Shown one piece after another: positions 3,311 through 22,029 of a stretch of DNA of 32,000 nt. The notes below the pieces were generated by a model. That model ran no database searches and was not told the DNA's origin. It worked only from the letters and a program-made list of their open reading frames with translations. Location of the stretch: contig NZ_CP074694.1 in NCBI RefSeq assembly GCF_018398935.1, positions 2,700,001 through 2,732,000 on the forward strand. Direction: 5' to 3'. Position numbers and translations under genes: made by a program. This DNA is from Telmatocola sphagniphila (GTDB lineage: Bacteria > Planctomycetota > Planctomycetia > Gemmatales > Gemmataceae). Within the stretch, counting starts at the first letter, position 1. Each line of letters starts with the position of its first letter.

Positions 3311-3614
3311 TAGAGGCATCCTCGCGGGGGTTCTTTCCAAGGACTCTACGGGATACCACTTTCAGTACCTCTCCGATTATCTCGCTCAGGACAGCCGGGA
3401 GTACCCGCCTATCAGCCTGAATTTCCCGAAACAGAAATCGGCGTTCAAATCGAACTTCCTTTTCCCGTTTTTCTACGGTCTGCTGGCTGAAGGAGAGGAA
3501 AAAGCTCTGCAGTGCCGATCACTCCGAATCGATGATAAAGACCACTTCGCTCGTCTTCTGAAAACCTGCGAAGCGGAAACCACCAGCGGAGTCACCGTGA
3601 AGGAGATTCCATGA
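3288..3614 (+). CDS. hipS: HipS-like protein (stand-alone HipA N-terminal subdomain)
   Basis: 108 aa. The start (AHVYSRGILAGVLSKDSTGYHFQYLSDYL) matches the HipA N-terminal 'couple_hipA' pattern. Its stop overlaps the next start (ATGA at 3611..3614). Size and position match HipS of HipBST modules. Confidence 0.75.
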   Translation: MQQAHVYSRGILAGVLSKDSTGYHFQYLSDYLAQDSREYPPISLNFPKQKSAFKSNFLFPFFYGLLAEGEEKALQCRSLRIDDKDHFARLLKTCEAETTSGVTVKEIP

Positions 3615-4612
3615 ACGGTTGCCCGTCGTGCTTCAAGTCGGGCCACAACACCTTCTGCACAAGTTGCAGGAAACGTCTCTTCAACGGGAAAAAAGTCTCG
3701 CACATACTTCCCTTCTCCCGACCGGCTTACAATGAGGCCAAGTTAAAAGTCACACCCGAGAGAATGTCGATATCCGGCATTCAGACCAAAATGTCACTGG
3801 TGCTGGAAGGCACGCAACTTAAGATGGTGGAATCCGGGGGACAATATATTCTGAAACCCATCCCTCTGGGGCAATTCCAAAGATTGGAAGTGACACCGCT
3901 AAACGAACACTTAACCATGCAGCTTGCCCGACAAATATTCGATATTGATGTGGCCGATAACACGCTGGTTCAATTCGAGGATGGGCAGCCTGCCTATCTC
4001 GTGCGCCGATTCGACGTGCAAGCCGACGGTCGGAGAAGCCTGAAAGAAGATTTCGCCCAGATCGGCAACTTATCCGAAGAGAACCGCGGGCAAAACTACA
4101 AGTACGACTTCTCATACGAAGAGATTGGTGAACTCATACGGCAGTACGTGGCCGTGCACGCCTTAGATCTCGAGCGATTTTTCACTCTGGTAGTTTTCAA
4201 TTATCTGGTGAATAACGGAGATGCTCATGCGAAGAATTTTTCGCTGATGCGCGATGAGAATACCGGCGAATATCGGCTTTCTCCCGCTTACGACCTTCTC
4301 AACACGCGATTGCACGTTCCCTTGGAATCCCGAACGGCCCTGGATCTTTTCAAGGAAAATTACGAAACAGATAGTTTCAAGGCGAATGGCTTTTATGCAC
4401 ACGATGACTTCGTCGAGTTTGCTCGAAGGCTGAATTTAGTCGAAGGTCGCTACCAGAGAATCCTCAAGAAATCGACCGACCGGATCGGAGAGGTTTTTGA
4501 GTTCATAGATAAGTCGCAACTTCCTGCCGATTGCAAGACTTTGTACAGAGAGCATGTGACCGCCGCAGCGAATGCGATTGGCTATTCCTTGGCCAGATCG
4601 CAAAAAGGTTGA
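3611..4612 (+). CDS. hipT: HipT-like Ser/Thr kinase toxin (HipA C-terminal kinase core) with an N-terminal Cys4 zinc-ribbon
   Basis: 333 aa. It has a Gly-rich-loop region MSISGIQTKM (compare the S-I-S loop of E. coli O127 HipT), the catalytic motif NNGDAHAKNFSL, and the Mg-binding SPAYDLLN. The N-terminus carries CPSC-x9-CTSC. Confidence 0.85.
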   Translation: MNGCPSCFKSGHNTFCTSCRKRLFNGKKVSHILPFSRPAYNEAKLKVTPERMSISGIQTKMSLVLEGTQLKMVESGGQYILKPIPLGQFQRLEVTPLNEHLTMQLARQIFDIDVADNTLVQFEDGQPAYLVRRFDVQADGRRSLKEDFAQIGNLSEENRGQNYKYDFSYEEIGELIRQYVAVHALDLERFFTLVVFNYLVNNGDAHAKNFSLMRDENTGEYRLSPAYDLLNTRLHVPLESRTALDLFKENYETDSFKANGFYAHDDFVEFARRLNLVEGRYQRILKKSTDRIGEVFEFIDKSQLPADCKTLYREHVTAAANAIGYSLARSQKG

Positions 4613-5409: not shown

Positions 5410-7653
5410 TTATCGCAACAGACCCACATCCAGCGCGGTAGCGATATTTCGCCAGATATACCACGCCCCGGTCTTCCAGGCCGTGTGAATTTTCACCGTC
5501 GCCAAAGTGCCCGGCACGACGGCTTCATCGGGATCGAGGAGTTTCACATCGACGAGATAAGTCTGAACCAGTGGTTCAATCTGGTTCTGCTGGCTCGTCG
5601 GCTTGATGGCCAGACTGCCGCCTCCCTTACTCGTCAGACCCACCGGTACATCCTTTGCGGGAGCCTCCGGAAGATGGGTTATGACCCCTTTCATGATCCG
5701 ATCGGCTCGGCCGGCCACGCGGATGGAAACCTCGAGTTCGTGGTACTTCTGCAAATGCTCGGCCAGCAGCTGATAATCGAGCGGGCCGACCGGAACCAGA
5801 ATTCGCAATTTCGAAGGATCGCCAATCTTGCAGAGGGCCTTCTGATCCGACCTCTCCCACATCTTCAGATATTCGTCTTGATGCGGAATCCCCATCACCA
5901 CACCATCGCGCGGGGCTTTGATCGCATTGAGTGCGCCAAGTTGTTCCTTCAGAACCCGGGCCTGATCGCGATATTTCTTCTCATCGTTCGTCGATTGAGT
6001 GAGATTGGAATTCCACTGCGAATAGGCATTTTGCGAGTCGGGAGTTTTCTTGACCGGAGCCGATTTCAAGGCGTTCAAGCGATCGTGATAGACGCTGGCC
6101 TGCGCTTCGGAAATCAGATAATCCTCTTCCATTTTCGGATTGGTGAACTCGGCCAGCAGCTGCCCCTTCAGCACGCGCTGACCATCGAACACCGCGACCC
6201 GTTGCAGAAAGCCCGAATCGGCCGGATAGACCGGTATCAGCGCATCTTCCTGGAACTGAATCAGCCCCTTCTCCCGAATGCGGCTGACGGGCAACGGCAC
6301 CAGGAACAAACCTGCCAAAAGCGATGCACAGACCAGCAGCGTGACGGCCACTCGTTTGCGTTTCATGTCGGGTAACCTCCCTCGCTGACGAATATTTTTT
6401 GCAACCCGGAACATCGGCCAGAAAATCATGGTCGCCACCGCGGCGAAGGCCAGAATTAAACTTAACGATTGCAGTTTGTACGGTTTTAACCATCCGGACA
6501 AAAACCAGATGATGCTAAATGTCACGATCCAACGGTAGATGTAGCTGGTGACAGCATAAGTAACGAACAGCACTTTTCGGCTGGGGGCCATGTAGGGTTC
6601 GGGGGGCACTTCGATACCCAGACAGGTCTCGTTGAAAGCGTTCATCAGATAGCGATTGGAACGCTCGCGAAGATTCGGCACTTCCAGCCAGTCCGCCAGG
6701 ATGTAATAGCCGTCGAACCGCATCAGGGGATTGGCATTGAAGACGAAAGTGCTGATACTGCAGAGCGTCATCAACGACAAAGCCAGATTGTTGACGAAGG
6801 GCCACATCGGCGTGTACCACCAGACGAAGGTCGAGGTGGCCGCGATGATCAACTCCACATAGATTCCGGCGAAGCTGATGATGATGCGTTTCCATTTATC
6901 CGCCAGCGTCCAGGAATCGGTCACGTTGCAATAGAGCGCGGGCGAAAAGCACATTAATAGTGCGCCCATTTCGTGACATTCGCCCCCGAAAGCCTTACAG
7001 CTCAGGCCGTGCCCGAACTCGTGGATGACCTTGACGATCCCCAGCGAGATCCACATGTAAACGACGGTCTTGGCGTTGAAGAACTCGTTCTGAGCCGGCA
7101 ATTTATCCCAGAAAATTGACCACTTCATGGTGATCAGGGCGATCGCGGCCAGCATGTAGGCAATGCTGACGACCAGGAACCATTTGGTGAAAATCCAGGA
7201 GAGGTTTTTGTACAGGACGTTGAGAATGCGATCCGGATCGAAGACGGGCAGCTTGATGTAGAGGATATTCGTGATGCCCATCAGCTTCTTGGTGAGCCGA
7301 TTCTTCCGCCGCTTCTGAAACAGATGCCGACCGGCCAGGGCCGATTCGTGATTGACCAGACCACTGGTCACGAGTTGTCGAGCGAACTGTTCCAGATCTT
7401 CCAGCGTCAGTCGGTGCGGACGAAATTCCGTTTCGAAATTGGTCCGCACATCTTCCAGCGTCCGTTTTCCGTCCAGGAGCTGGAAAACGTAATATTCCTG
7501 ATCGTTGAATCGATAGTATTTCAGACCGACCGGATCTTTAACGACGTGGTAGATTTTGCCTTCGTAGCGTTGTCGGCTATGAACCAGATCGGCCCGGACG
7601 CACAGGCGCACCTGCTTGCGGCGTTCGGCATCTGGCACATATGTGGTATCCAT
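5410..7653 (-). CDS. M50 (site-2 protease family) intramembrane metalloprotease with a PqqD/RRE-like N-terminus and a C-terminal HlyD-type adaptor module
   Basis: The zinc motif IHEFGHG is encoded at about 7006..7026, and the second S2P motif is NPLMRFDGYY. After a late TM helix (VAVTLLVCASLLAGLFLVPLPV) come a lipoyl-like half, a coiled coil, a second half (IKAPRDGVVMG) and a beta-barrel. The track starts at TTG 7656; ATG at 7653 is more likely. Confidence 0.8.
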   Translation of the reverse strand: MDTTYVPDAERRKQVRLCVRADLVHSRQRYEGKIYHVVKDPVGLKYYRFNDQEYYVFQLLDGKRTLEDVRTNFETEFRPHRLTLEDLEQFARQLVTSGLVNHESALAGRHLFQKRRKNRLTKKLMGITNILYIKLPVFDPDRILNVLYKNLSWIFTKWFLVVSIAYMLAAIALITMKWSIFWDKLPAQNEFFNAKTVVYMWISLGIVKVIHEFGHGLSCKAFGGECHEMGALLMCFSPALYCNVTDSWTLADKWKRIIISFAGIYVELIIAATSTFVWWYTPMWPFVNNLALSLMTLCSISTFVFNANPLMRFDGYYILADWLEVPNLRERSNRYLMNAFNETCLGIEVPPEPYMAPSRKVLFVTYAVTSYIYRWIVTFSIIWFLSGWLKPYKLQSLSLILAFAAVATMIFWPMFRVAKNIRQRGRLPDMKRKRVAVTLLVCASLLAGLFLVPLPVSRIREKGLIQFQEDALIPVYPADSGFLQRVAVFDGQRVLKGQLLAEFTNPKMEEDYLISEAQASVYHDRLNALKSAPVKKTPDSQNAYSQWNSNLTQSTNDEKKYRDQARVLKEQLGALNAIKAPRDGVVMGIPHQDEYLKMWERSDQKALCKIGDPSKLRILVPVGPLDYQLLAEHLQKYHELEVSIRVAGRADRIMKGVITHLPEAPAKDVPVGLTSKGGGSLAIKPTSQQNQIEPLVQTYLVDVKLLDPDEAVVPGTLATVKIHTAWKTGAWYIWRNIATALDVGLLR

Positions 7654-7701
7654 CAAATTTCTTCCCGAGTTCCGTCGGCCATCCCTGATCTACTGAGGCA
7701 G

Positions 7702-7729
7702 AGCCCGCAACCGCATTGCGGCGCGGGCT
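7702..7729 (-). other. GC-rich intercistronic hairpin between the WD40-adaptor and M50 genes
   Basis: In AGCCCGC AA CCGC ATT GCGG C GCGGGCT, the outer 7-bp and inner 4-bp arms are perfectly complementary. No T-tract follows on the minus strand, so it is not a classical terminator. Confidence 0.5.
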
Positions 7730-7751
7730 AAACTTGATACTTTCGATGAAA

Positions 7752-9821
7752 TCAGGGCTGGATGATCACGGTCGCCGTATCGCCCGGTAAGAGCTGCCAG
7801 CGTTCTTCGGTCGGATTTTCCAACTCGGCGATGATCCTCACCGTTTTGCCGTTCGGTTCCACCTGGGAACCTTTTTTGGGAATCACCCCTTTATAAACGT
7901 GCGTCAATTCTTCGGTATCGGGCAGTTTCCAGAGATAAACCGATCCCTTCTTGGTACCCGCAACAATGAATCCCCCCACCCCGACGGTCGAGAATGCCGC
8001 GGCGGTGGCCTGAGCGTTGTCATCGCAGATGAGGTTTTCCAGTTCGGCACTCTTCCCGCCCCCGGTCGGAGTTTTCCAGACCTGCAGGCTCCCCTCGGTC
8101 GAACCGGTGGTGACGATGACGCGATCGCCTTTTTCGTTCAGCTTGGGTGACAACAGGGCCAGACCGGCGAACTTGTTGCTTTCGGAAGGAGATTGCAAGG
8201 TGCTTTCAGTCACACCATCTCCCAAGGTCACGATATTCAATCGGGTGGGATCCTGGTCGATCAGCATGCGATTCCCATCGTCGCTGACACCAAGATTGGA
8301 AACTTCACCGCCGCGGTGGTCGAAGCTTCTTTCCACCGTGGCATTCTTGTCTCCCATCTTCCAGACGCAGGCGGCATCATTGTCCTTACCCACGGAAACC
8401 ACACGGCCCTGGGGCAGAAACGCCAGCTTAACTACTGGTTGGACGTGTTTGCGTTCTTCAAACTTGTAGAGTTTCTTCCCCGTCGCGGTTTCCCACAGAT
8501 AAATGTCCCGTTCATCCGACGTCACGCAATATTTGCCATCGGGAGAGATCGCACAAGCGAGAACCCCGCCCACATGGTGACCATCGAATTCTTTGGCTTC
8601 CGACTTGGGGGTACCGATGTACCAGAGTCGAGCTTTACCATCATCGCAACCGGTGACGATGAACTGTTTCGCCACGCTGGGAAGGGTGCAGGCGAGTGTA
8701 CGAACCGGTTCCTTATGCTTGAAAGAAGCTTTGATGGATTTCAAATCCCACATGTGAACCGAGCCATCTTCGCTGGCGACGAAGACCAGATGATCCGGCC
8801 CGAGTCGGGTCGTCGCGATAGCCGTGATTGGCCGGCTACTGGTTCGAGGCATCGTCAAGTATTTGCCCGTCTTACGGGAGGGCTGAATCGTGACGGCCAT
8901 ACCGTCCTGGATTAAGCCCAAGTTCTGAACGTCGACGGCCCCTTCGATTTGAAGGTGCTTAGTATCCTGGATTTGCAGAATGGTTTCGCCGGCCTTGATG
9001 GCATCTCCAGCCTGTTTATTGATTGATTGGACTCGTCCACTGAGTGCGGGCGAAATCGTGTGTCGCGACAGCTTCTCCTGGGCCGTATCAAATTCCACTT
9101 TGGATTTACCCAAAGCAGCCTTCTTAGACTCCGCCTGGGATTCCGCAACCGTGACTTGAGCTTTACTCTTCGCAACTTCGATATCGGGAACTGCGGCCTT
9201 ACCTTCTTTATTGGCTTTCAAATTGGATCTGTATTCGAGATCATAATACTCCACTTGTTTCCTTGCGGATTTTTCATCGGCAACCGCAACATCCATAGCT
9301 CGTAATGCGGAAAGAACATTTAAGATGGACATCTTATCCTCGAGTAAAGCGACGGGCTTGTCCTTCTCAACGTAATCGTTCACTCGCAGGCGGATATAGG
9401 TATAAATTTTCGCAGGTTGACCTTCTTGGGTATAAGGATCTTTCACATCCAAATATTCGAAGGGATCTGAAGGCTTCTGTTCGCCCGGACGCAAGGGACG
9501 CCCGATCCAACGGATCGTCCCTTCGAGTTCGCTCGGCACATCCTGCTTCGCGGGCAGAACAATGTGTCCCTGGGGGACCAGAATCGGATCGGCTTTGATA
9601 ACACCCGTCTTGATATCCGCTTTATCGAAGGCTACCGCTTTGGGATAAAGCAGGTTGCCGATCTCCACCGGGGTACTTGGCTGGTTGGAGGTCACATTCG
9701 TATTGGCCGAAGAAAGACCGTTACCGATGTTCACCGCATCGGACTTGATGGTTACCGGATCGCAAGCGGTCAGGGCCAGCAAGCCCACTCCTAGCAGCGG
9801 TAAAAATCTTCGCATATTCAT
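7752..9821 (-). CDS. Lipoprotein: HlyD-type adaptor with a 7-bladed WD40 beta-propeller inserted in its beta-barrel domain
   Basis: 689 aa. It has a signal peptide with lipobox LLALTAC. Next come a lipoyl half, a long coiled coil, a second half (SPALSGRVQSINKQAGDAIKAGETILQIQD) and the barrel start. Seven WD-like blades follow (VHMWDL, ARLWYI, IYLWET, ACVWKM, LNIVTL, LQVWKT, VYLWKL). The barrel then closes (GKTVRIIAELENPTEERWQLLPGDTATVIIQP). GAGG precedes the ATG. Confidence 0.8.
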   Translation of the reverse strand: MNMRRFLPLLGVGLLALTACDPVTIKSDAVNIGNGLSSANTNVTSNQPSTPVEIGNLLYPKAVAFDKADIKTGVIKADPILVPQGHIVLPAKQDVPSELEGTIRWIGRPLRPGEQKPSDPFEYLDVKDPYTQEGQPAKIYTYIRLRVNDYVEKDKPVALLEDKMSILNVLSALRAMDVAVADEKSARKQVEYYDLEYRSNLKANKEGKAAVPDIEVAKSKAQVTVAESQAESKKAALGKSKVEFDTAQEKLSRHTISPALSGRVQSINKQAGDAIKAGETILQIQDTKHLQIEGAVDVQNLGLIQDGMAVTIQPSRKTGKYLTMPRTSSRPITAIATTRLGPDHLVFVASEDGSVHMWDLKSIKASFKHKEPVRTLACTLPSVAKQFIVTGCDDGKARLWYIGTPKSEAKEFDGHHVGGVLACAISPDGKYCVTSDERDIYLWETATGKKLYKFEERKHVQPVVKLAFLPQGRVVSVGKDNDAACVWKMGDKNATVERSFDHRGGEVSNLGVSDDGNRMLIDQDPTRLNIVTLGDGVTESTLQSPSESNKFAGLALLSPKLNEKGDRVIVTTGSTEGSLQVWKTPTGGGKSAELENLICDDNAQATAAAFSTVGVGGFIVAGTKKGSVYLWKLPDTEELTHVYKGVIPKKGSQVEPNGKTVRIIAELENPTEERWQLLPGDTATVIIQP

Positions 9822-9910
9822 GATACCTCGGAGAATAAGTTTAAGCTAACCCAGCCAGCGCTATACGTGAAATAAACCGGAGCAACTCGTGGCCGCTCCA
9901 GGGAAGTCAT
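9818..9910 (-). CDS. Candidate 30-codon sORF (MTSLERPRVAPVYFTYSAGWVSLNLFSEVS) filling the gap between the GAF-adaptor and WD40-adaptor genes
   Basis: Hand translation of the minus strand: the ATG at 9910 lies 5 nt after the upstream TAA, and the TGA at 9820..9818 overlaps the downstream ATG (ATGA). There is no homology evidence. It is supported only by its exact fit and its coupling at both ends. Confidence 0.25.
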   Translation of the reverse strand: MTSLERPRVAPVYFTYSAGWVSLNLFSEVS

Positions 9911-9915
9911 AATTT

Positions 9916-12060
9916 TTACAACCAGAAAATTACGTGTTCGTGCAGGAAGTCGAACACGCCGTAAAACAGCGAATAGCCCAGAGAGTGATTGCCGCAACGG
10001 ATATTGGTTTTCACTTCCAGGCCCGTTAGCAACAAACCCTGTTGAATGTGTTCATCGAGAGGCATTTCCGGATCGTTCACAGTGACGATTGCCGTGACCA
10101 CCGGCTCGGATTCGTTGTGATCATCCTTATTCGCAACGGCTTCGCTCGTGATATCCTTGCGATAGAGCCGTCCCGCATACTTCACGGTGGTCTGGCTCGA
10201 GAGCATCACGTCCACATTCAAGTACTCGTTCGGATCCTTGGTCTGGAACGCACGAAGAATCTGGCCGATGTGCTTTTGGGGAATCTTCTGTTCGATTTCC
10301 CAAGCGCCGGAGGTGTTCGCGATTCGCAGGATTGGTTCCGTGGGTTTCAGAGGCCGATTCAACAGGGTTTCGCGTTGATCGGGGGAAATTACGTGCCATT
10401 CGGGGATTGCCCCGTTACCTACGCGTGCTCGTTCGAACTGGGGAGCTTGCACTACGATGACGCCAGGTTTATTGATATCCGAGTTAGTCGATTTCAGTTT
10501 CTGATTGAGTTCTTCCGACTTGGCCCGCAAGGTCGTGCGGTATTCTTCCAGCTTAGATGCTCGATCCGCCTTTTGATCGGGAGTCATTTTGTCATCTCCC
10601 AAAGCATTCTGCTGCAGCACGTCGATATTGTTTTTCGCCCCGTCAATTTCCGTTTTCAGCTTCATGATATCGGCTTTAAGCTCATTCGATTCCAGAATGG
10701 CGACGGGAGTTTTCGGCAGCACGACATCGCGCGGTTTAACCCGAATTTCGCGGACCTGCCCTTCCATTTGCGGGAAGATATAACGGCGTTCCTTGGGCAG
10801 CAATTGCCCCTTTGCATCCATTTTCAGCGGGTAAGGAACATAAATCATCGCGCAAGTAATGAGTGCCGCGAGGGCAAGACCAAAAATCGTGTAAAGCCGC
10901 GTCTTCCCCCCAACGCCCTTCTGCACCCAGGAAACCGGTTTCCAGACCACCTTCAAAGGAACGGCCTTCATTTCCGCCGCGTTGTATAAAGCACTAGCGG
11001 CGTGGGGAGCCATCACTTCCAGGCGTTGAATGAGTGGTTCGCTGCGTTCGGGCGGCTCAAAGCATTCCATCAAGATGGCCGAGCGGCAGGGCTTCTCTTT
11101 TTCCTTGTCCTTGGGCCGTTCCCGCTCATCGCGAATCGGTTTGAGGACCAGCAATTTCGAGTTGCTCTCGGCTAAATAGCGATCAAGAGCATTCAAAACA
11201 GCAGGCGGCAACGATTCATCGCGCTGGCCACGATAGGTCAAAGTTTCGTTCCATTCGATCACTTTGTCGAATAGCTTCCGCATCGACCGAACGTGTGTAC
11301 TCGATTTTTCGACGACATCCGCGCCGCTGACGCACTCTACCGTCGTTTTGCGGCCATGCTGCACACCGACCGAAACCCGGTCGCATTGGATGAGTCGTCG
11401 GCCTTCATTGGCGATCTGGAAAGCGACTTCGGCCGGAGAGAGCGAACTGTGGATTTTCTGGGTGAATTTCTCGAGTCCCTGCCAGACTTCTTCCTGCTGC
11501 GTATTTTTTCGGGCCGAGTGATTGCGGTTGTAATTCGACGCATAACCGGCCATCTGCTCGATGTAGCGGTAAAAAGTAGCGTGAATCCGGTTATCGGTAT
11601 AAGGTTCGGTCCAGACTTCGAGCAGTCCGACAATGGCATTCTCGTCCGATACGATCGGCGAGAGAATGACCACATAATCGGTCAGGTTCGCAGCCTGGCT
11701 GCCATCCTCCGCGCTCATGGCCGCGTAAGGTTCGAGCATAATGGGCCGGGCCACCGCGAAGGCCTGCCGTAGCAACTCGTTGTGAATCTGACGTCCCTGC
11801 GGTTTATCGTCGAGGCCGACTTTGGCCATATTCTGCTGGCATTGAATCTGAAGGAAGCCTTGCGGCGTCTTGATCCAGACTGCGCCGGCGAAGCCATCGA
11901 TCCCGGCCAGGACCCGGGCCAGGAAAGTCTCGAAGTAATCGGTGGGAGGGAGGTTGGAACCCGAAAGCTTGGCAACTTCTTCGAATGCAGTGTCTATCTG
12001 ACGGGAGAGACGCTTCATTCCGTCGTTGTCTAAAGACATGGGAGTAACCTTGTTTACCAC
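9916..12060 (-). CDS. Tandem-GAF, single-TM, HlyD-type adaptor fusion protein
   Basis: 714 aa from GTG 12060 (alternative ATG at 12039). It has two GAF-like segments (..VVILSPIVSDENAIVGLLEVWTEP.. and ..RLIQCDRVSVGV...SAILMECFEP..). These are followed by the TM helix LYTIFGLALAALITCAMIYV, a lipoyl-like half (GQVREIRVKPRDVVLPKTPVAILES), a coiled coil, a beta-barrel, and a HlyD-like hydrophobic C-terminal tail. Confidence 0.75.
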   Translation of the reverse strand: MVNKVTPMSLDNDGMKRLSRQIDTAFEEVAKLSGSNLPPTDYFETFLARVLAGIDGFAGAVWIKTPQGFLQIQCQQNMAKVGLDDKPQGRQIHNELLRQAFAVARPIMLEPYAAMSAEDGSQAANLTDYVVILSPIVSDENAIVGLLEVWTEPYTDNRIHATFYRYIEQMAGYASNYNRNHSARKNTQQEEVWQGLEKFTQKIHSSLSPAEVAFQIANEGRRLIQCDRVSVGVQHGRKTTVECVSGADVVEKSSTHVRSMRKLFDKVIEWNETLTYRGQRDESLPPAVLNALDRYLAESNSKLLVLKPIRDERERPKDKEKEKPCRSAILMECFEPPERSEPLIQRLEVMAPHAASALYNAAEMKAVPLKVVWKPVSWVQKGVGGKTRLYTIFGLALAALITCAMIYVPYPLKMDAKGQLLPKERRYIFPQMEGQVREIRVKPRDVVLPKTPVAILESNELKADIMKLKTEIDGAKNNIDVLQQNALGDDKMTPDQKADRASKLEEYRTTLRAKSEELNQKLKSTNSDINKPGVIVVQAPQFERARVGNGAIPEWHVISPDQRETLLNRPLKPTEPILRIANTSGAWEIEQKIPQKHIGQILRAFQTKDPNEYLNVDVMLSSQTTVKYAGRLYRKDITSEAVANKDDHNESEPVVTAIVTVNDPEMPLDEHIQQGLLLTGLEVKTNIRCGNHSLGYSLFYGVFDFLHEHVIFWL

Positions 12061-12320: not shown

Positions 12321-12674
12321 TCAGAACTGAGCCAGATGATCATTTTCCCATTTTAATATTCGCGCCATGGCTTCATCCGCTTCACATTTTTCTTCCGGTA
12401 TCGGAAATTGGAATCGCTCGGTAGCCGCTAGCTGCAGCGCGCCGGCTTTGGAGTGACCATCCGACCAGAGAACCACGAATTTGCTGATCGCTCGGGCTTT
12501 TTTCTGCAGTTGACCGATTTTTTGATTGGCGTCGCCGACGTCGGGGATTGTTTCTTCGAGCAGTTCCGCCCAATCAACGAGCCACTCCACGAGCATGCGG
12601 GCTTCGATATCCCCCAGTCCGCGCGTCAGAGCTTCGTCATTGATTATGCGACGATACATCGGTTCTACAATCAT
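12321..12674 (-). CDS. Hypothetical small acidic helical protein
   Basis: The track ORF begins at GTG 12689. The ATG at 12674 is preceded by GAGGGGGA at good spacing, so 117 aa (MIVEPMYRRIINDEAL...) is more likely. I recognise no motif. It is co-directional with the adaptor-chimera operon and lies 260 bp upstream of it. Confidence 0.6.
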   Translation of the reverse strand: MIVEPMYRRIINDEALTRGLGDIEARMLVEWLVDWAELLEETIPDVGDANQKIGQLQKKARAISKFVVLWSDGHSKAGALQLAATERFQFPIPEEKCEADEAMARILKWENDHLAQF

Positions 12675-12936
12675 CCAATTCCCCCTCACATCATTGCGGT
12701 CGGTGAAACGAACTTACCCCGGATCGATCTTGGGAGTATTCGAATGAATCGCTCCCCAGGTCCACTGGGATGGAAGAACTTCCCCGCCGCTCTGAATAGC
12801 CGTCAGGCCCCCACTGACAGGCGGGACCATAACGGTCGGCAGCTTTAGAAGCAACCTCAACCTTATCCTGTTGCGTTCAACCCCTTTTCAAGCGTATAAC
12901 AGCATTTCAGCCAACATAAGAAAAACAGGAACAGGT

Positions 12937-17327: not shown

Positions 17328-17363
17328 TAGTCCAATCAGACTATCTTTAGTATGATCGGACTA
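17328..17363. promoter_or_regulatory. 36-bp near-perfect palindrome, candidate TetR operator
   Basis: TAGTCCAATCAGACTA, a tctt spacer, then TAGTATGATCGGACTA. The reverse complement of the second box matches the first at 14 of 16 positions. It overlaps the first ATG (17352) of the TetR ORF and ends 3 nt before the second ATG (17367). Confidence 0.55.
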
Positions 17364-18092
17364 AATATGACAACGGACATAATTAACGCAGACACGCTGG
17401 ATTCAAAACCCGAGAAATCGTCCCGTCGACTGGATATCGCTTCCATTCGTCGGGAACAGATTATCGAAGCGGCGATTCATATCATCGTGAGTCAGGGTTT
17501 ACAGAATCTTTCGCTCTCCCGGATCGAAGAACGGACCGGCATGAAGCGAGGGCAGCTAACTTACTACTTCCCGGCCAAAGAGGAGATTCTGATAGCGGTC
17601 TTCGACCGCCTCCTGGAGCGGATGCTCGAGAGAATGAATGACGGGGTGAATTTCAAGGAAAAGCACGGGATCCCCTCCGTCTGGGATATGTTTCGAAAGC
17701 GCCTGACGGAGCGTTTGAAGCAAAACGGACCGGAGGAAAGCTCTTTCAGTGCCTTGCAGTTTACGTTTCTGTCTCAAATCGAGCATCGGGAAGATTACCG
17801 TCGGAAATTGGCCACGCAGTATGAGGAATGGCGGCGAATTCTTTCTGTGCACTGGACACTGACCGGGAAACCCGTGGAGAATTTTGCAGAATCGGATCCG
17901 CGAATTGTGGCTTCTTTCCTTCAGTCCTTGATGTTGGGACTGAACGTGCTGCTCACGGCGGATCCGAAAGCCTTTGATATTCAGAAAATGTTTGAATTTT
18001 GTGTCCGTCTTCTGGGACCATTATTCACCAAAGATCCAGAGCCAACGAACGAAGAACCCCAAAATATCGCCGGGGAGGATGTTGCGAAATGA
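17352..18092 (+). CDS. TetR/AcrR-family transcriptional regulator
   Basis: It has an N-terminal HTH (IRREQIIEAAIHIIVSQGLQNLSLSRIEERTGMKRGQLTYYFPAKEEIL). The start may instead be the in-frame ATG at 17367. Its stop overlaps the next start (ATGA). Confidence 0.85.
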   Translation: MIGLNMTTDIINADTLDSKPEKSSRRLDIASIRREQIIEAAIHIIVSQGLQNLSLSRIEERTGMKRGQLTYYFPAKEEILIAVFDRLLERMLERMNDGVNFKEKHGIPSVWDMFRKRLTERLKQNGPEESSFSALQFTFLSQIEHREDYRRKLATQYEEWRRILSVHWTLTGKPVENFAESDPRIVASFLQSLMLGLNVLLTADPKAFDIQKMFEFCVRLLGPLFTKDPEPTNEEPQNIAGEDVAK

Positions 18093-19459
18093 TCGACACG
18101 AATGAAATGCCCAACGGGTCCTCGATGGCCGCGGTGGCGCCCATCCTGTCCGAAAGGGTGAAACAGCTCCAACTCCATGGCCGAATGGAAGGAGACAAGC
18201 GGGGCGGGTCGAACGCCTTTTTGCCCTGGTTGCTTTGCATTTTGATGGCCATTGCCTGGGCCAGCGTGGGCATTCGCTACTACAGGGCGAATCCCAATGC
18301 GAGTAACGCGGCTGCACCCAACGGCCCTTCAACTCCTCCGGGCGAGGCCCCGAAGGATTCCGCCGGTAATCCCATCAAAAAAGAAGCTCCCAAGCAAATT
18401 GCCCGGAATCCGGACGAACCCGTCCTGGACATGAAGGGGTACATCATCCCGGCCCATACCATCTCCGTCAGTCCGATCGAGGTCAGCGGTCGTATCGTCC
18501 GGCTGGAAATTGAGGAAGGAAAATCCTTCAAAAAAGACGACGTTCTCGCCGTCATTGATGACAGCAGCTTCCGGGCGGATCGGGACGAAGCCAAAGCGAA
18601 CTGGGATTCTCTGATCGAAAAAATGCGGGAGATGAAGAACGGCAACCGACCCGAAGAAATCGAGCAAGCTCGAGCCGAGTTACTGGAAGCGGAAGCCAAT
18701 TTGAAGGCGGCCCAACTGGAGTGGGAGCGCTATCAAGGGAAAAAAGTGGATGCCATTGCTCGAAAAGATTTCGACACCGTCGAAAGTTCTTATCGCGGCG
18801 GTCTGGCTCGAGTAGCCAAACTCCGCCAGAGCTTGCGTTTGATGGAACTGGGCCCCCGAGAAGAGAGAGTCAAAGGCGCTATCGCCGATGTGGACGCCGC
18901 GAAAGCCCGGCTCGACCGCGCCGAATGGCGTCTGAAAAATTGCACGATTTTCAGCCCCGTCGATGGGGTCATCCTTGCGAAACGGGCGGAAATCGGCAGC
19001 TTAATCAATCCCGTCGTGGGTGGTGTGGCCACCAGCCTTTGCGACATCGCCGATTTGTCGGACATCGAAGTCGATATGGAAATTCAGGAACGCGACGTTT
19101 CAAAAGTATTCGATGGCCAGTACTGTAAAATCAAGGCCGATGCGTTTCCCGAGCGGAGTTACGACGGTTATGTGGATCGCTCGATGCCGATTGCCAACCG
19201 AGCACGCGGGATCGTTCCCATTCGAATCAAAGTCGTCGTTCCTCCCACGGAAAAACAGGGGAAGTATCTGAAGCCCGACATGGGCGTGGCGGTGACCTTC
19301 TTCAACCAGCGATACGACAAGTGGCCCAACAAGTGGAATGTGCCGGTCGACCCGATCCCCGGTTCATTGGCCCCGGCCCCAGCGGCCGAGCCCAAGAGCA
19401 CTCCGCCAGCCGTCGAGCCCAAGAACCCAACACCTTCTGAATCCAAGAAAGCAGGCTGA
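18089..19459 (+). CDS. HlyD/MacA-type periplasmic adaptor (membrane fusion protein)
   Basis: The track ORF starts at 17999 inside the TetR gene. The ATG at 18089 (MIDTNEMPNG...) is coupled to the TetR stop and preceded by GGGGAGG. It has a TM (FLPWLLCILMAIAWASVGI), lipoyl halves, a coiled coil with RPEEIEQARAEL, a barrel, and a Pro-rich tail. Confidence 0.85.
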   Translation: MIDTNEMPNGSSMAAVAPILSERVKQLQLHGRMEGDKRGGSNAFLPWLLCILMAIAWASVGIRYYRANPNASNAAAPNGPSTPPGEAPKDSAGNPIKKEAPKQIARNPDEPVLDMKGYIIPAHTISVSPIEVSGRIVRLEIEEGKSFKKDDVLAVIDDSSFRADRDEAKANWDSLIEKMREMKNGNRPEEIEQARAELLEAEANLKAAQLEWERYQGKKVDAIARKDFDTVESSYRGGLARVAKLRQSLRLMELGPREERVKGAIADVDAAKARLDRAEWRLKNCTIFSPVDGVILAKRAEIGSLINPVVGGVATSLCDIADLSDIEVDMEIQERDVSKVFDGQYCKIKADAFPERSYDGYVDRSMPIANRARGIVPIRIKVVVPPTEKQGKYLKPDMGVAVTFFNQRYDKWPNKWNVPVDPIPGSLAPAPAAEPKSTPPAVEPKNPTPSESKKAG

Positions 19460-19462
19460 AAC

Positions 19463-20218
19463 GTGTTGTCAGGATCCCCAAACACCCTGGTCCGCGTTCA
19501 GGATTTATACAAGTCCTTCGTACGCGGCAACGAAGAGATCCAGGTTCTCAAGAAACTGACTCTGGAAGTGGCACGCGGCGAATTCCTCGCCTTGATGGGC
19601 CCATCCGGCTCGGGAAAAACGACCCTGCTGAATCTGATTGCCGGGCTCGATCAGCCGACCGGCGGCAGCATTACTGTGGACGGCGAAGTCATTTCAGAAA
19701 TGTCCGAAAGCCAACTGGCCCGATGGCGGACGCGCAACGTCGGCTTCGTGTTCCAGTTCTACTATCTTCTGCCGGTACTCACGGCTTATGAAAATGTGGA
19801 GCTGCCTTTGCTGCTCCTTCCCATGTCCAAGGAACAGCGCCGCAAGCAAGTCCTCACGGCCCTCGATCTCGTAGGGCTGTCCAGTCGCTTGACTCACCGC
19901 CCGGGGATGCTTTCCGGGGGGCAACAGCAGCGTGTCGGCATCGCCCGCGCCATGGTCACCGACCCCGCCCTGATCGTGGCCGACGAACCGACTGGGGACC
20001 TGGATTCCAAATCGGCCGATGAAATTCTGAAGCTGATGCAGATCTTGTGCGAACAGGTGAACAAAACGATCATCATGGTGACGCACGATCCGCACGCCGC
20101 CGAAAAGTCGCAACGGACTTTGCACCTGGATAAGGGCCGGCTAGTGGAAGATGATGACCGCACCCGGGCTTACATGCGGGAAACGCCTCCGAAAACCAAT
20201 CAGGAGGTGTTCACATGA
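19463..20218 (+). CDS. ABC transporter ATP-binding protein, MacB/LolD class
   Basis: Walker A is GPSGSGKTT, the signature is LSGGQQQRVGIARA, and Walker B is IVADEPTGDLD. The H-loop VTHD is also present. Confidence 0.9.
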   Translation: MLSGSPNTLVRVQDLYKSFVRGNEEIQVLKKLTLEVARGEFLALMGPSGSGKTTLLNLIAGLDQPTGGSITVDGEVISEMSESQLARWRTRNVGFVFQFYYLLPVLTAYENVELPLLLLPMSKEQRRKQVLTALDLVGLSSRLTHRPGMLSGGQQQRVGIARAMVTDPALIVADEPTGDLDSKSADEILKLMQILCEQVNKTIIMVTHDPHAAEKSQRTLHLDKGRLVEDDDRTRAYMRETPPKTNQEVFT

Positions 20219-22029
20219 TGCCCTACCCAGAGTTCACTTTCTTCGAAGGGATGCTGATTCTCTTCAAATTCCTGATGTTGGTCGTACTTCTTGCACTACT
20301 TGCAGCAGTCGTGACCATGCCGTTGTTCTTTGCCATCGTCACTTATATCTCGAAGTGGTTGGGTGCCAGAGAAGGCATGGACCGGACAACCGGATCGATC
20401 TTTTCGCGAACTTGCAATTTCCTGATCTGGATCGCGGTACCTTTGCTGAGTCTGTCCGGAACTGTATTCCTCCTGGGCTATTCGGGTGGCCTCGATGCTT
20501 TCAACTCGACGCATCCTCAGAAATCGGTAGCGAATCCGCGGCCCATCAAACGAGAGTTCGTCAACAAATTCGAGGATCTTACTCGTAATCTGACCGGCCA
20601 GGCAGAGTTGATCAGTCAGGCCAATTCAAAGCAGGAACTCACACCGGACGAAGAGCTTGAGAAAATCGGAGCGGAGAACTCGTTGAAAATGATGAGATCG
20701 GCGATTGTCTTTTTCATCTATCAAATCGGCCCTATTCCTCTGATCGTGATTCTCGCCGCGGTGATCTTCGGTCGGCGGAAGCTCCAGCTCATTGTTCGAA
20801 GTCTGAATAGAAATCCGCTGCGCACTTCGCTTATGTATGTGGCCATTTTCGTGCTGTCGTCCGTGCTGGCTTTGGTCTGGACGGTCCTGTCGTTCATCGA
20901 CGAAGTGACTACGGAGCAGGAAGGAACTCTAAAGGCCATTATCACCGAACGCTATCAAATTCCTTCTCAGCTAAAACCTACGCACGTTCGGGAACTGTGG
21001 CGATTGGTGGAACAGCTTCCTCCGGAAAATCGTCCGCAGAACGGCGACGACGACCTGATGACCTGGGCGTTTCTGGCGGGAACTCTCGACCCGAAAAATA
21101 AAACTGCTCAGAACTCCTTCTTCCTATTCTGCATGGAACCCCGAAAAGTTTTGACCATGCTCGACGGCCTGGAGGATCTCACGCAAGAGCAAAGGAAGAT
21201 GCTCGAAAAAGCCGCCGCCGCGATGGAAGAAAACAAGAAAGGTGTAGTGATAGGACTCGAAAAGCTGACGCAACTCGGGAAGCGCGTCGGCGATCGTATT
21301 CAATTGACGGGATTGAACTACACCGATCTGGTTTTCGATATGGAAATCGTTGGCACCTTCCCCGGTGGAACTCGCTACGACCAGAGCGCGGTTATGAATC
21401 GGGATTACCTTTATCAGGCTCTCGACCGGTACAAGGGGGAAAAAGGCAAAGAACATCCCATGGCGGACAAGTGCCTGAATCTGATCTGGCTGCGATTGCC
21501 CAACAAGCAGGCTTTCGATCAACTCGCTGAACTGGTCGACGCTTCGGGTCGCTTCAGCCCTTCCATTAAAATTGAAACCTCCTCGTCCGGGATCAGCACC
21601 TTCCTGGACGCTTACAAAGAAATTCTCTGGGGACTGCGCTGGATTCTGGCGCCCGTTCTGATGGGCACTATGATCCTGATCATTGCGGTAGCCATTAGCA
21701 TCAGCGTGCGCGAAAGGCGGACCGAAATGGCCGTCTTGAAAGTGCTGGGGTATCAACCGGGCACGATCATGCTGTTCGTGCTGGGTGAGGCAATCTTCAT
21801 CGGTATGCTTTCTGGCTTTCTGGCCATGTGTCTGATTGCCGTTCTGGTGAACGTGGGTATGGGTGGGGTGAACTTGAAAATTGCTTTCTTCGGGCGATTC
21901 TTCGTACCGAACGCGGCACTCTGGTGGGGCCCGGCACTCGGAACCTTTGCTTCTTTGGTGGGCAGTATCATACCGGCCCTGTCCGCCCGTTCGGTTAAAG
22001 TGACCGATGTATTTTCTCGAGTGGCTTAA
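20215..22029 (+). CDS. FtsX/MacB-type ABC permease with an extra N-terminal polytopic extension
   Basis: ATGA coupling and a GGAGG RBS. The canonical TM1 (NPLRTSLMYVAIFVLSSVLAL) is followed by a large periplasmic domain and a C-terminal FtsX block (RERRTEMAVLKVLGYQPGTIM...). About 190 aa with three or four hydrophobic helices precede TM1. Confidence 0.8.
   Translation: MMPYPEFTFFEGMLILFKFLMLVVLLALLAAVVTMPLFFAIVTYISKWLGAREGMDRTTGSIFSRTCNFLIWIAVPLLSLSGTVFLLGYSGGLDAFNSTHPQKSVANPRPIKREFVNKFEDLTRNLTGQAELISQANSKQELTPDEELEKIGAENSLKMMRSAIVFFIYQIGPIPLIVILAAVIFGRRKLQLIVRSLNRNPLRTSLMYVAIFVLSSVLALVWTVLSFIDEVTTEQEGTLKAIITERYQIPSQLKPTHVRELWRLVEQLPPENRPQNGDDDLMTWAFLAGTLDPKNKTAQNSFFLFCMEPRKVLTMLDGLEDLTQEQRKMLEKAAAAMEENKKGVVIGLEKLTQLGKRVGDRIQLTGLNYTDLVFDMEIVGTFPGGTRYDQSAVMNRDYLYQALDRYKGEKGKEHPMADKCLNLIWLRLPNKQAFDQLAELVDASGRFSPSIKIETSSSGISTFLDAYKEILWGLRWILAPVLMGTMILIIAVAISISVRERRTEMAVLKVLGYQPGTIMLFVLGEAIFIGMLSGFLAMCLIAVLVNVGMGGVNLKIAFFGRFFVPNAALWWGPALGTFASLVGSIIPALSARSVKVTDVFSRVA

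Follow-up and report, generated by a model that had tools for sequence, protein, structure and literature searches.

In Telmatocola sphagniphila, the open reading frame (ORF) at 5410-7656 on the minus strand of the stretch analysed here holds a protein in which a PqqD-type RiPP recognition element (RRE; RiPP, a ribosomally made peptide with post-translational modifications) is followed by an M50-type membrane protease and a membrane-fusion adaptor, and which we refer to as the RRE-M50-adaptor protein. The stretch, hereafter the window, comprises 32,000 nt (assembly GCF_018398935.1, contig NZ_CP074694.1, positions 2,700,001-2,732,000 of the forward strand). The best explanation of this architecture, which we consider probable, is that a cytoplasmic RRE fused to an intact M50 protease and a periplasmic adaptor docks a peptide segment for the protease, with an export tag as the preferred candidate. 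An identical database record (P0004, 747 amino acids) begins with the ATG at 7653, a TTG lying one codon further upstream at 7656, and its numbering is used for all residues below.

A PqqD-type winged helix at the N-terminus

The original prediction, made from the letters of the window and their translations, had proposed a PqqD/RRE-like peptide-recognition fold for the interval 7341-7614. This interval on the minus strand encodes residues ~15-105 of the RRE-M50-adaptor ORF, and the residues quoted with the prediction are present in the translation. When the isolated N-terminal 120 amino acids were compared with Pfam, they matched the PqqD family PF05402 with 25.8 bits (E 1.4e-5, profile positions 2-67 of 67), the gathering cut-off being 23.4 bits. 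In the context of the full-length protein the score was slightly below this cut-off (21.9 bits), with the whole 67-position profile covered by residues 37-101, and in a six-frame scan of the 6.59-Mb genome the gene scored 26.7 bits and no second PqqD-type domain was found. Relatives of the N-terminal domain were collected by a library-wide phmmer search, which gave 1163 cluster representatives at E<=1e-3, 294 of them at E<=1e-10, and 40 diverse relatives were aligned (alignment A1) for structure prediction and for per-sequence PqqD scans, in which 14 of the 40 matched PqqD at E<=0.01.

AlphaFold2, run with this 40-sequence alignment, modelled the domain with a mean confidence score (pLDDT) of 86.8, reaching 93-97 over residues 21-100. 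The three-strand plus three-helix pattern that had been read from the sequence reappeared in this model, as strands 25-31, 34-41 and 46-50 followed by helices 52-60, 67-77 and 85-98, with an extra N-terminal strand, and a model of the full-length protein gave the same RRE topology (strands 24-30, 33-40 and 45-49; helices 51-59, 66-76 and 84-97). As revealed by Foldseek comparison with the Protein Data Bank (PDB), the best matches of the model were leader-bound RREs, with a probability of 1.00 and a target TM-score of 0.72-0.75, headed by the lasso leader-binding protein TbiB1 (5v1u, 5v1v) and the lasso B1 protein 6jx3 and followed by PqqD (5sxy), the PbtF RRE (8t19), TigE, the heterocyclases TruD and relatives (4bs9, 4v1t), TbtB and the sactisynthases (5wgg, 5why). 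A structural scan independent of Foldseek (VIA), covering 48,161 chains with a stated background of Z 7-8, ranked the same proteins as follows:

TbiB1: Z 11.4, 83 of 84 residues aligned, root-mean-square deviation (rmsd) 2.6
6jx3: Z 11.0
TigE: Z 10.5
PqqD: Z 9.0
PbtF RRE: Z 8.2
DNA-binding winged helices (Fur, OmpR/CadC/ToxR-type): Z 5-6.8

The neighbours of the domain in a protein language model were PqqD clusters as well. Single-sequence and profile hidden Markov model searches of the domain against PDB sequences returned no RRE match, and the relationship is visible only through fold comparison and the Pfam profile. Taken together, the family profile and the predicted structures confirm residues ~16-103 as a PqqD-type RRE winged helix, homologous to PqqD, with a match well beyond chance, and the fold originally proposed for the N-terminus is thereby borne out.

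Domain architecture and conservation

The following features, all on the minus strand, could be assigned along the protein:

7609..7653, residues 1-15: variable N-terminal tail (mean top-residue frequency 0.29, low pLDDT)
7345..7608, residues ~16-103: PqqD-type RRE winged helix (PF05402, AlphaFold2, Foldseek, VIA scan)
7237..7344, residues 104-139: Lys/Arg-rich linker helix and short strand leading from the RRE to the first membrane helix (helix 107-128 and strand 132-138 in the full-length AlphaFold2 model)
6364..7236, residues 140-430: M50/site-2-protease-type membrane core (PF02163, daptide_HExxH, hydrophobic helices)
7009..7023, residues 211-215: HEFGH zinc-binding/catalytic motif, from the sequence (E212 invariant, H211 and H215 at least 90% conserved)
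6709..6738, residues 306-315: second M50 motif, N-x-N-P-x-x-x-x-D-G, with the third zinc-ligand Asp (N306, N308, P309, D314 and G315 invariant in 40 homologues)
6289..6363, residues ~431-455: last transmembrane helix, predicted to run from cytoplasm to periplasm (hydropathy peak 435-453, AlphaFold2 helix 432-451)
5413..6288, residues 456-747: membrane-fusion domain of the HlyD/MexA adaptor type, predicted to be periplasmic and containing a coiled-coil hairpin (Foldseek, TIGR01730)

The protease assignment was given by the Peptidase_M50 family PF02163, which the full-length protein matched with 39.1 bits against a cut-off of 27.2, and both M50 motifs fall in helices predicted by AlphaFold2 and by hydropathy. 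HlyD-type Pfam matches in the C-terminal half were weak, the RND_mfp model TIGR01730 matched with E 7e-8, and in the full-length AlphaFold2 model (pLDDT 89.3) the C-terminal 290 residues resembled MexA (1vf7, E 5.6e-12), MacA, AcrA and ZneB by Foldseek. Positive charges are concentrated in the N-terminal 157 residues, which have 29 Lys and Arg versus 19 Asp and Glu, and in the 19-residue loop preceding the last transmembrane helix, which carries nine Lys and Arg. The seven predicted helices and this distribution of charges would place the N-terminus inside and the C-terminus outside, so that the RRE would be cytoplasmic and the adaptor periplasmic. Since positions of the catalytic motifs are invariant in 40 homologues, the protease is predicted to be active.

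For these measures of conservation we used an alignment of 40 full-length homologues with 23-62% identity (alignment A2), in which the RRE had a mean top-residue frequency of 0.57, the M50 core one of 0.56 and the adaptor a lower one of 0.37. Within the RRE, residues R20, P41 and G62 are invariant and D22, L23, K39, D40, L44, Y46, R48, D61, P79 and F90 are at least 90% conserved. A one-genome-per-species scan yielded at least 571 related stretches, and in the best 80 loci, which we analysed and of which all but a few differently labelled records carry a Planctomycetota label, the N-terminal domain was kept in every case. It was also kept in 52 of the 53 listed matches from a sample of 121 Planctomycetota genomes, scored for presence of the protein at E<=1e-30, with alignments starting at residues 1-34, and the one match that departs from this (G053:C454) starts at the end of a contig. 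Thus, the domain is as conserved among M50-adaptor homologues as the protease core itself, and a precomputed PF05402 annotation already stands on many of them. Shorter RRE-M50 proteins without the adaptor were also sought, and the 120 listed included apparent fragments of this family but none that was named as a daptide-type protease, a result that is uninformative on stand-alone forms.

Relation to known RRE proteases

The best NCBIfam model for the protein was NF041824, daptide_HExxH, with 172.6 bits (E 1.3e-50) over residues 40-413, short of the model's cut-off of 300 bits, and the M50 core by itself gave 158.1 bits. The RRE alone had only weak PqqD-type matches in NCBIfam (TIGR03859, E 0.0036). 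[quoted passage not shown] Like MpaP/DapP, the T. sphagniphila protein has an N-terminal RRE fused directly to an M50 HExxH membrane protease (RRE 16-103, HEFGH 211-215, second motif 306-315), and the presumed logic, in which the RRE docks a peptide for the protease, would be the same. Unlike MpaP/DapP, however, it continues for ~290 residues as a C-terminal periplasmic adaptor beyond the 379-position model, which ends near residue 413, and its host is a planctomycete and not an actinomycete or a member of the Bacillota. Near the operon to which the gene belongs we found no daptide precursor, no DapB, DapC or DapD and no methyltransferase gene, daptide loci being marked by several short precursors that end in Thr along with genes for a DUF-RRE protein, an oxidative decarboxylase, an aminotransferase and a methyltransferase. 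Because of the score below cut-off, the lack of daptide genes nearby and the extra adaptor, we do not regard the RRE-M50-adaptor protein as a daptide protease.

An analogy to the YydH-type M50 proteases of peptide-maturation operons, which had been suggested from the sequence, turned out to be weak, and MpaP/DapP is the closer analogue. The YydH/EpeP/LiaK epipeptide proteases are likewise M50 HExxH membrane proteases, implicated in peptide maturation and perhaps export (PMC10885120), but the YydH/LiaK model NF058609 reached only 48.2 to 50.8 bits against a cut-off of 225, and its 246 positions align with the M50 core alone (residues 167-341) and not with the RRE or the adaptor. As to the RREs of other pathways, the domain shares its fold and the PF05402 family with TbiB1 (5v1u/5v1v), 6jx3 and PqqD (5sxy) at Z 9.0-11.4, with 83-87 aligned residues and an rmsd of 2.4-2.6, whereas identity to them is only 13-18% and they serve cysteine proteases, cyclases or radical-SAM enzymes acting on small precursors; the T. 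sphagniphila RRE, in contrast to the lasso and PQQ RREs, is tethered to a membrane protease-adaptor and has no known precursor. While the fusion of an RRE with a site-2 protease is known, we found in the literature no experimental description of the triple fusion with an adaptor in a SecA-associated module.

The three-gene module and its association with a truncated SecA

The RRE-M50-adaptor gene (5410-7653) is the last of three co-directional adaptor-containing genes separated by gaps of 94-98 nt. The other two, also on the minus strand, are:

9916..12060: first operon gene, encoding a cytoplasmic domain with a faint GAF_3 match (E 0.22) that PMC4452313 names GAF, one transmembrane helix and an adaptor (weak GAF_3 and HlyD matches)
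7752..9821: middle operon gene, encoding an adaptor with a WD40 propeller (Pfam HlyD_3, HlyD_D23, WD40)

Of the 62 related loci that have at least 4 kb of upstream DNA, 55 contain a GAF-type gene there in the same orientation. The middle adaptor gene occupies the same position in related loci, with WD40 in 17 of 80, which are the closest, Gemmataceae-type loci only.

A locus of this kind was described in 2015 as a secondary SecA_DEAD gene together with Peptidase_M50/HlyD, HlyD and GAF/HlyD genes and was termed "type I secretion-related" (PLoS One, PMC4452313); PqqD is mentioned in that paper 0 times. The GAF-adaptor, adaptor and M50-adaptor genes are co-located in T. sphagniphila too, but here the truncated SecA lies ~0.93 Mb off the operon, and the middle adaptor has a WD40 propeller. 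No truncated SecA_DEAD paralogue was found in the 32,000-nt window. The T. sphagniphila paralogue has 684 amino acids and is located at C1:3632745-3633947 (L084:799-2853, minus strand), the operon being at 2.705 Mb; it contains the DEAD motor, the preprotein cross-linking domain and P-loop 2, and gave no Pfam match to the C-terminal wing/scaffold. Its neighbours on either side are genes for an OmpR-type response regulator and an RraA-like protein.

Across the phylum sample, at least two SecA_DEAD matches were found in 25 of the 33 genomes with the RRE-M50-adaptor protein versus 5 of the 88 without it, and some of these 5 look like canonical genes that are split. The second SecA directly adjoins the M50 gene in many genomes (for example G001, G019, G033, G040, G060, G088, G104, G107 and G111). 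Since related genomes are not independent, we read this association as a strong trend and not as a formal test.

What the recognition element might bind

An RRE fused to an intramembrane protease and an adaptor had been taken to imply a dedicated peptide substrate, and for this part of the original prediction we found no support. Neither among the window ORFs of at least 25 amino acids nor in the 80 related loci was there a conserved precursor-like small ORF in or beside the operon. The window ORFs conserved in the 80 loci were the three module genes with their antisense shadows, a 122-amino-acid ORF in 12 loci and a few larger flanking genes in 1-6 loci, and clustering of all non-shadow ORFs of the 80 loci produced no short-peptide family. 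A 30-codon ORF at 9818-9910 on the minus strand, in the gap between the first two operon genes, was considered as a precursor and rejected; in 14 related loci the corresponding gap holds nothing like it, and it is therefore probably a chance ORF. The operon neighbours are adaptor chimeras, a HAD hydrolase, HipA, an acyltransferase/AMP-ligase and a SpoU methylase, and no RiPP tailoring enzyme was recognised among the scanned ORFs of 1035-22029. Hence, of the mechanism first envisaged, the peptide-recognition fold on a protease-adaptor stands, while of a dedicated small peptide there is no sign.

The SecA-associated context of GAF-adaptor, adaptor and M50-adaptor genes suggests that the docked peptide is a segment of an exported protein and not a small dedicated peptide. 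In addition, since the RRE equals the catalytic core in conservation and the operon comes without a small precursor gene, the RRE ligand is probably a conserved sequence common to many unlinked genes. A planctomycete N-terminal export signal, first reported in 2004 and borne by many of the largest surface proteins, is of this type. In Rhodopirellula the orphan signal reads RRLxxExLExRxLLA, while the version of Tuwongella, a member of the Gemmataceae, is LxLExLExRxxP and occurs in 52 genes, with 8 of the 10 longest proteins bearing it (PMC8567305). As the corresponding models PF07595 and NF012209 are too short for six-frame genome searches, and whole-genome scans with them gave nothing at E<=0.01, a motif scan of the T. 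sphagniphila genome was used instead. It revealed at least 18 open frames of 344-2489 residues with an N-terminal basic stretch followed by LExLExR and usually then by V-L or V-P, a motif that fits the tag reported for Rhodopirellula and Tuwongella. Such frames begin, for example, at C1:5027405 (plus strand) and at 5060610, 4298461, 4726667 and 4489034 (all minus strand), and none lies in the window. The tag-bearing proteins have no obvious hydrophobic signal-peptide core. Ten of them were scanned for domains, which gave a clear PA14 domain in one, a subtilase in another and weaker pectate-lyase-like, Ig-like and GDSL-lipase-like matches in three more.

Three things speak for this tag: the RRE is highly conserved, the tag is conserved too and sits on many unlinked genes, and the module is an envelope module associated with SecA. 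We prefer the LExLExR export tag as the RRE ligand, a choice that is as yet unproven.

A proposed docking mechanism and its rivals

By analogy with other RREs, a short peptide segment would be captured as an added beta-strand in the groove that strand 3 forms with helix 3, and the captured substrate would then be held beside the cytoplasm-facing active site of the protease, as proposed for MpaP. In T. sphagniphila the segment so docked, and possibly clipped, during protein export may be the basic-plus-LExLExR tag, and export might be aided by the truncated SecA and the three adaptors. In its most specific form, which we put forward tentatively and as something short of probable, the RRE would be the long-missing receptor of the planctomycete 'RRLxxExLExRxLL'-type signal, so that RiPP-style recognition would have been recruited to an ABC-independent export route with a truncated SecA and three adaptors, in which the M50 protease would act as the signal peptidase.

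Several observations weigh against this explanation. Winged helices of proteins outside leader recognition scored comparably in the VIA scan, PKMT2 with Z 9.7 and Rv2067c with Z 9.9, and because leader binding is not known for either, an RRE-like fold does not prove peptide binding. The RRE adds only ~14 bits to the NF041824 score and has no NF041824 match by itself. At E<=1e-30 the protein was found in 33 of the 121 sampled Planctomycetota genomes, so the module is not universal in the phylum. Of the signal models, which have only 20-24 positions, PF07595 reached E 0.17-0.24 in two of the ten scanned tag proteins and NF012209 gave no match. Finally, the link between tag and RRE is circumstantial; the tag genes are not near the operon in T. 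sphagniphila, and within 10 kb of the operon we counted 6 tags in 5 of the 80 loci, a number not clearly above background and too small for linkage.

These points leave room for readings of the domain in which the ligand is not a tag. If the protein were a classical RiPP leader peptidase, the RRE would bind one dedicated precursor that is encoded elsewhere or was missed, the M50 protease would remove its leader and the adaptor would help to release the peptide. RREs are best known from RiPP pathways, the closest characterised relative of the protein is the daptide leader peptidase and a weaker one is the YydH/LiaK epipeptide protease; however, no conserved small ORF appears at the operon, in the window or in the 80 loci, the 30-codon ORF between the first two genes not being conserved, tailoring enzymes are missing nearby, and the genome has this one PqqD-type domain as the only one found. 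Moreover, RRE sequences of RiPP pathways diverge with their leaders, whereas this one is unusually conserved across orders, and we consider a dedicated precursor unlikely. High conservation would also fit a fixed protein partner, and in another explanation the winged helix contacts the cytoplasmic GAF region of the first operon protein, the truncated SecA or, in Pirellulales-type loci, the adjacent DUF3467 protein, and gates or assembles the complex without touching the substrate. The GAF-adaptor gene is conserved alongside, the truncated SecA co-occurs, 18 loci have a DUF3467 gene directly beside the operon, and the similar winged helices of PKMT2 and Rv2067c have roles other than leader binding. 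Yet by sequence the domain is homologous to the PqqD family of peptide chaperones, the same fusion in MpaP has been assigned to leader recognition, and in T. sphagniphila the DUF3467 and SecA genes are both unlinked to the operon, which makes a role confined to assembly or regulation rather improbable.

The winged helix could also be thought to bind DNA, the protein being a membrane-tethered transcription factor that is freed by its fused protease. Although Fur and OmpR/CadC/ToxR-type winged helices do occur in the structural list at Z 5-6.8, RRE-type domains rank far higher (Z 9-11.4) with the whole domain covered, the sequence profile that matches is PqqD, and for a domain located upstream of the protease's own membrane core self-release has no obvious mechanism. 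This reading, rejected on the structural ranking, is very improbable.

Pathways for peptide natural products are most commonly found through their RREs, and with an RRE on a protease-adaptor that comes without precursor, tailoring enzymes or transporter, genome miners would mis-score the locus as a RiPP cluster. If the RRE does read the tag, the recognition step of a secretion route not yet described, one for giant surface proteins, would have a name, the company that a truncated SecA keeps with the module would be accounted for, and leader-peptide recognition would have been reused in protein export.

Neighbouring genes and minor observations

Elsewhere in the Planctomycetota, GAF and M50 genes are separated by just ~1-1.5 kb, with room for a much shorter gene, and in four non-WD40 loci a weak, adaptor-only match (q139-332) to the middle protein falls within this gap. 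A GC-rich inverted repeat, GCCCGCGCC...GCGGGC, lies in the spacer before the M50-adaptor gene (7657-7751, minus strand), and no T-run follows it.

The 122-amino-acid ORF mentioned above (12321-12689, minus strand) lies 260 nt upstream of the GAF-adaptor gene and occupies the same position in its 12 loci, which are Gemmataceae-type, with 41-114 bits. Searches with it gave no Pfam family and structure prediction no confident fold; it may be a fourth, lineage-specific gene of the module. We did not adopt it as the RRE ligand.

The DUF3467 gene (PF11950, E down to 1e-23) that directly flanks the operon in 18 Pirellulales-type loci (e.g. L028:12312-12650, L045:12403-12735) stands immediately downstream of the M50-adaptor gene in 16 of them; in the other 2 its place is directly upstream of the GAF gene. 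T. sphagniphila has a single DUF3467 homologue, at C1:671210-671512 (L085), unlinked to the operon.

At 17352-22029 on the plus strand, 5 kb from the operon, the window holds genes for a TetR regulator, an adaptor, an ABC ATPase and an FtsX permease, which look like an ordinary MacAB-type efflux cluster. The cluster is not conserved beside the module, two of its genes giving only weak hits in 5-6 of the 80 loci (best 47-84 bits), and we took it neither as the missing transporter nor as part of the module. Downstream of the operon, an IS66-family transposase gene (1035-2414) and a HipA-like kinase gene (3611-4612) are encoded on the plus strand.

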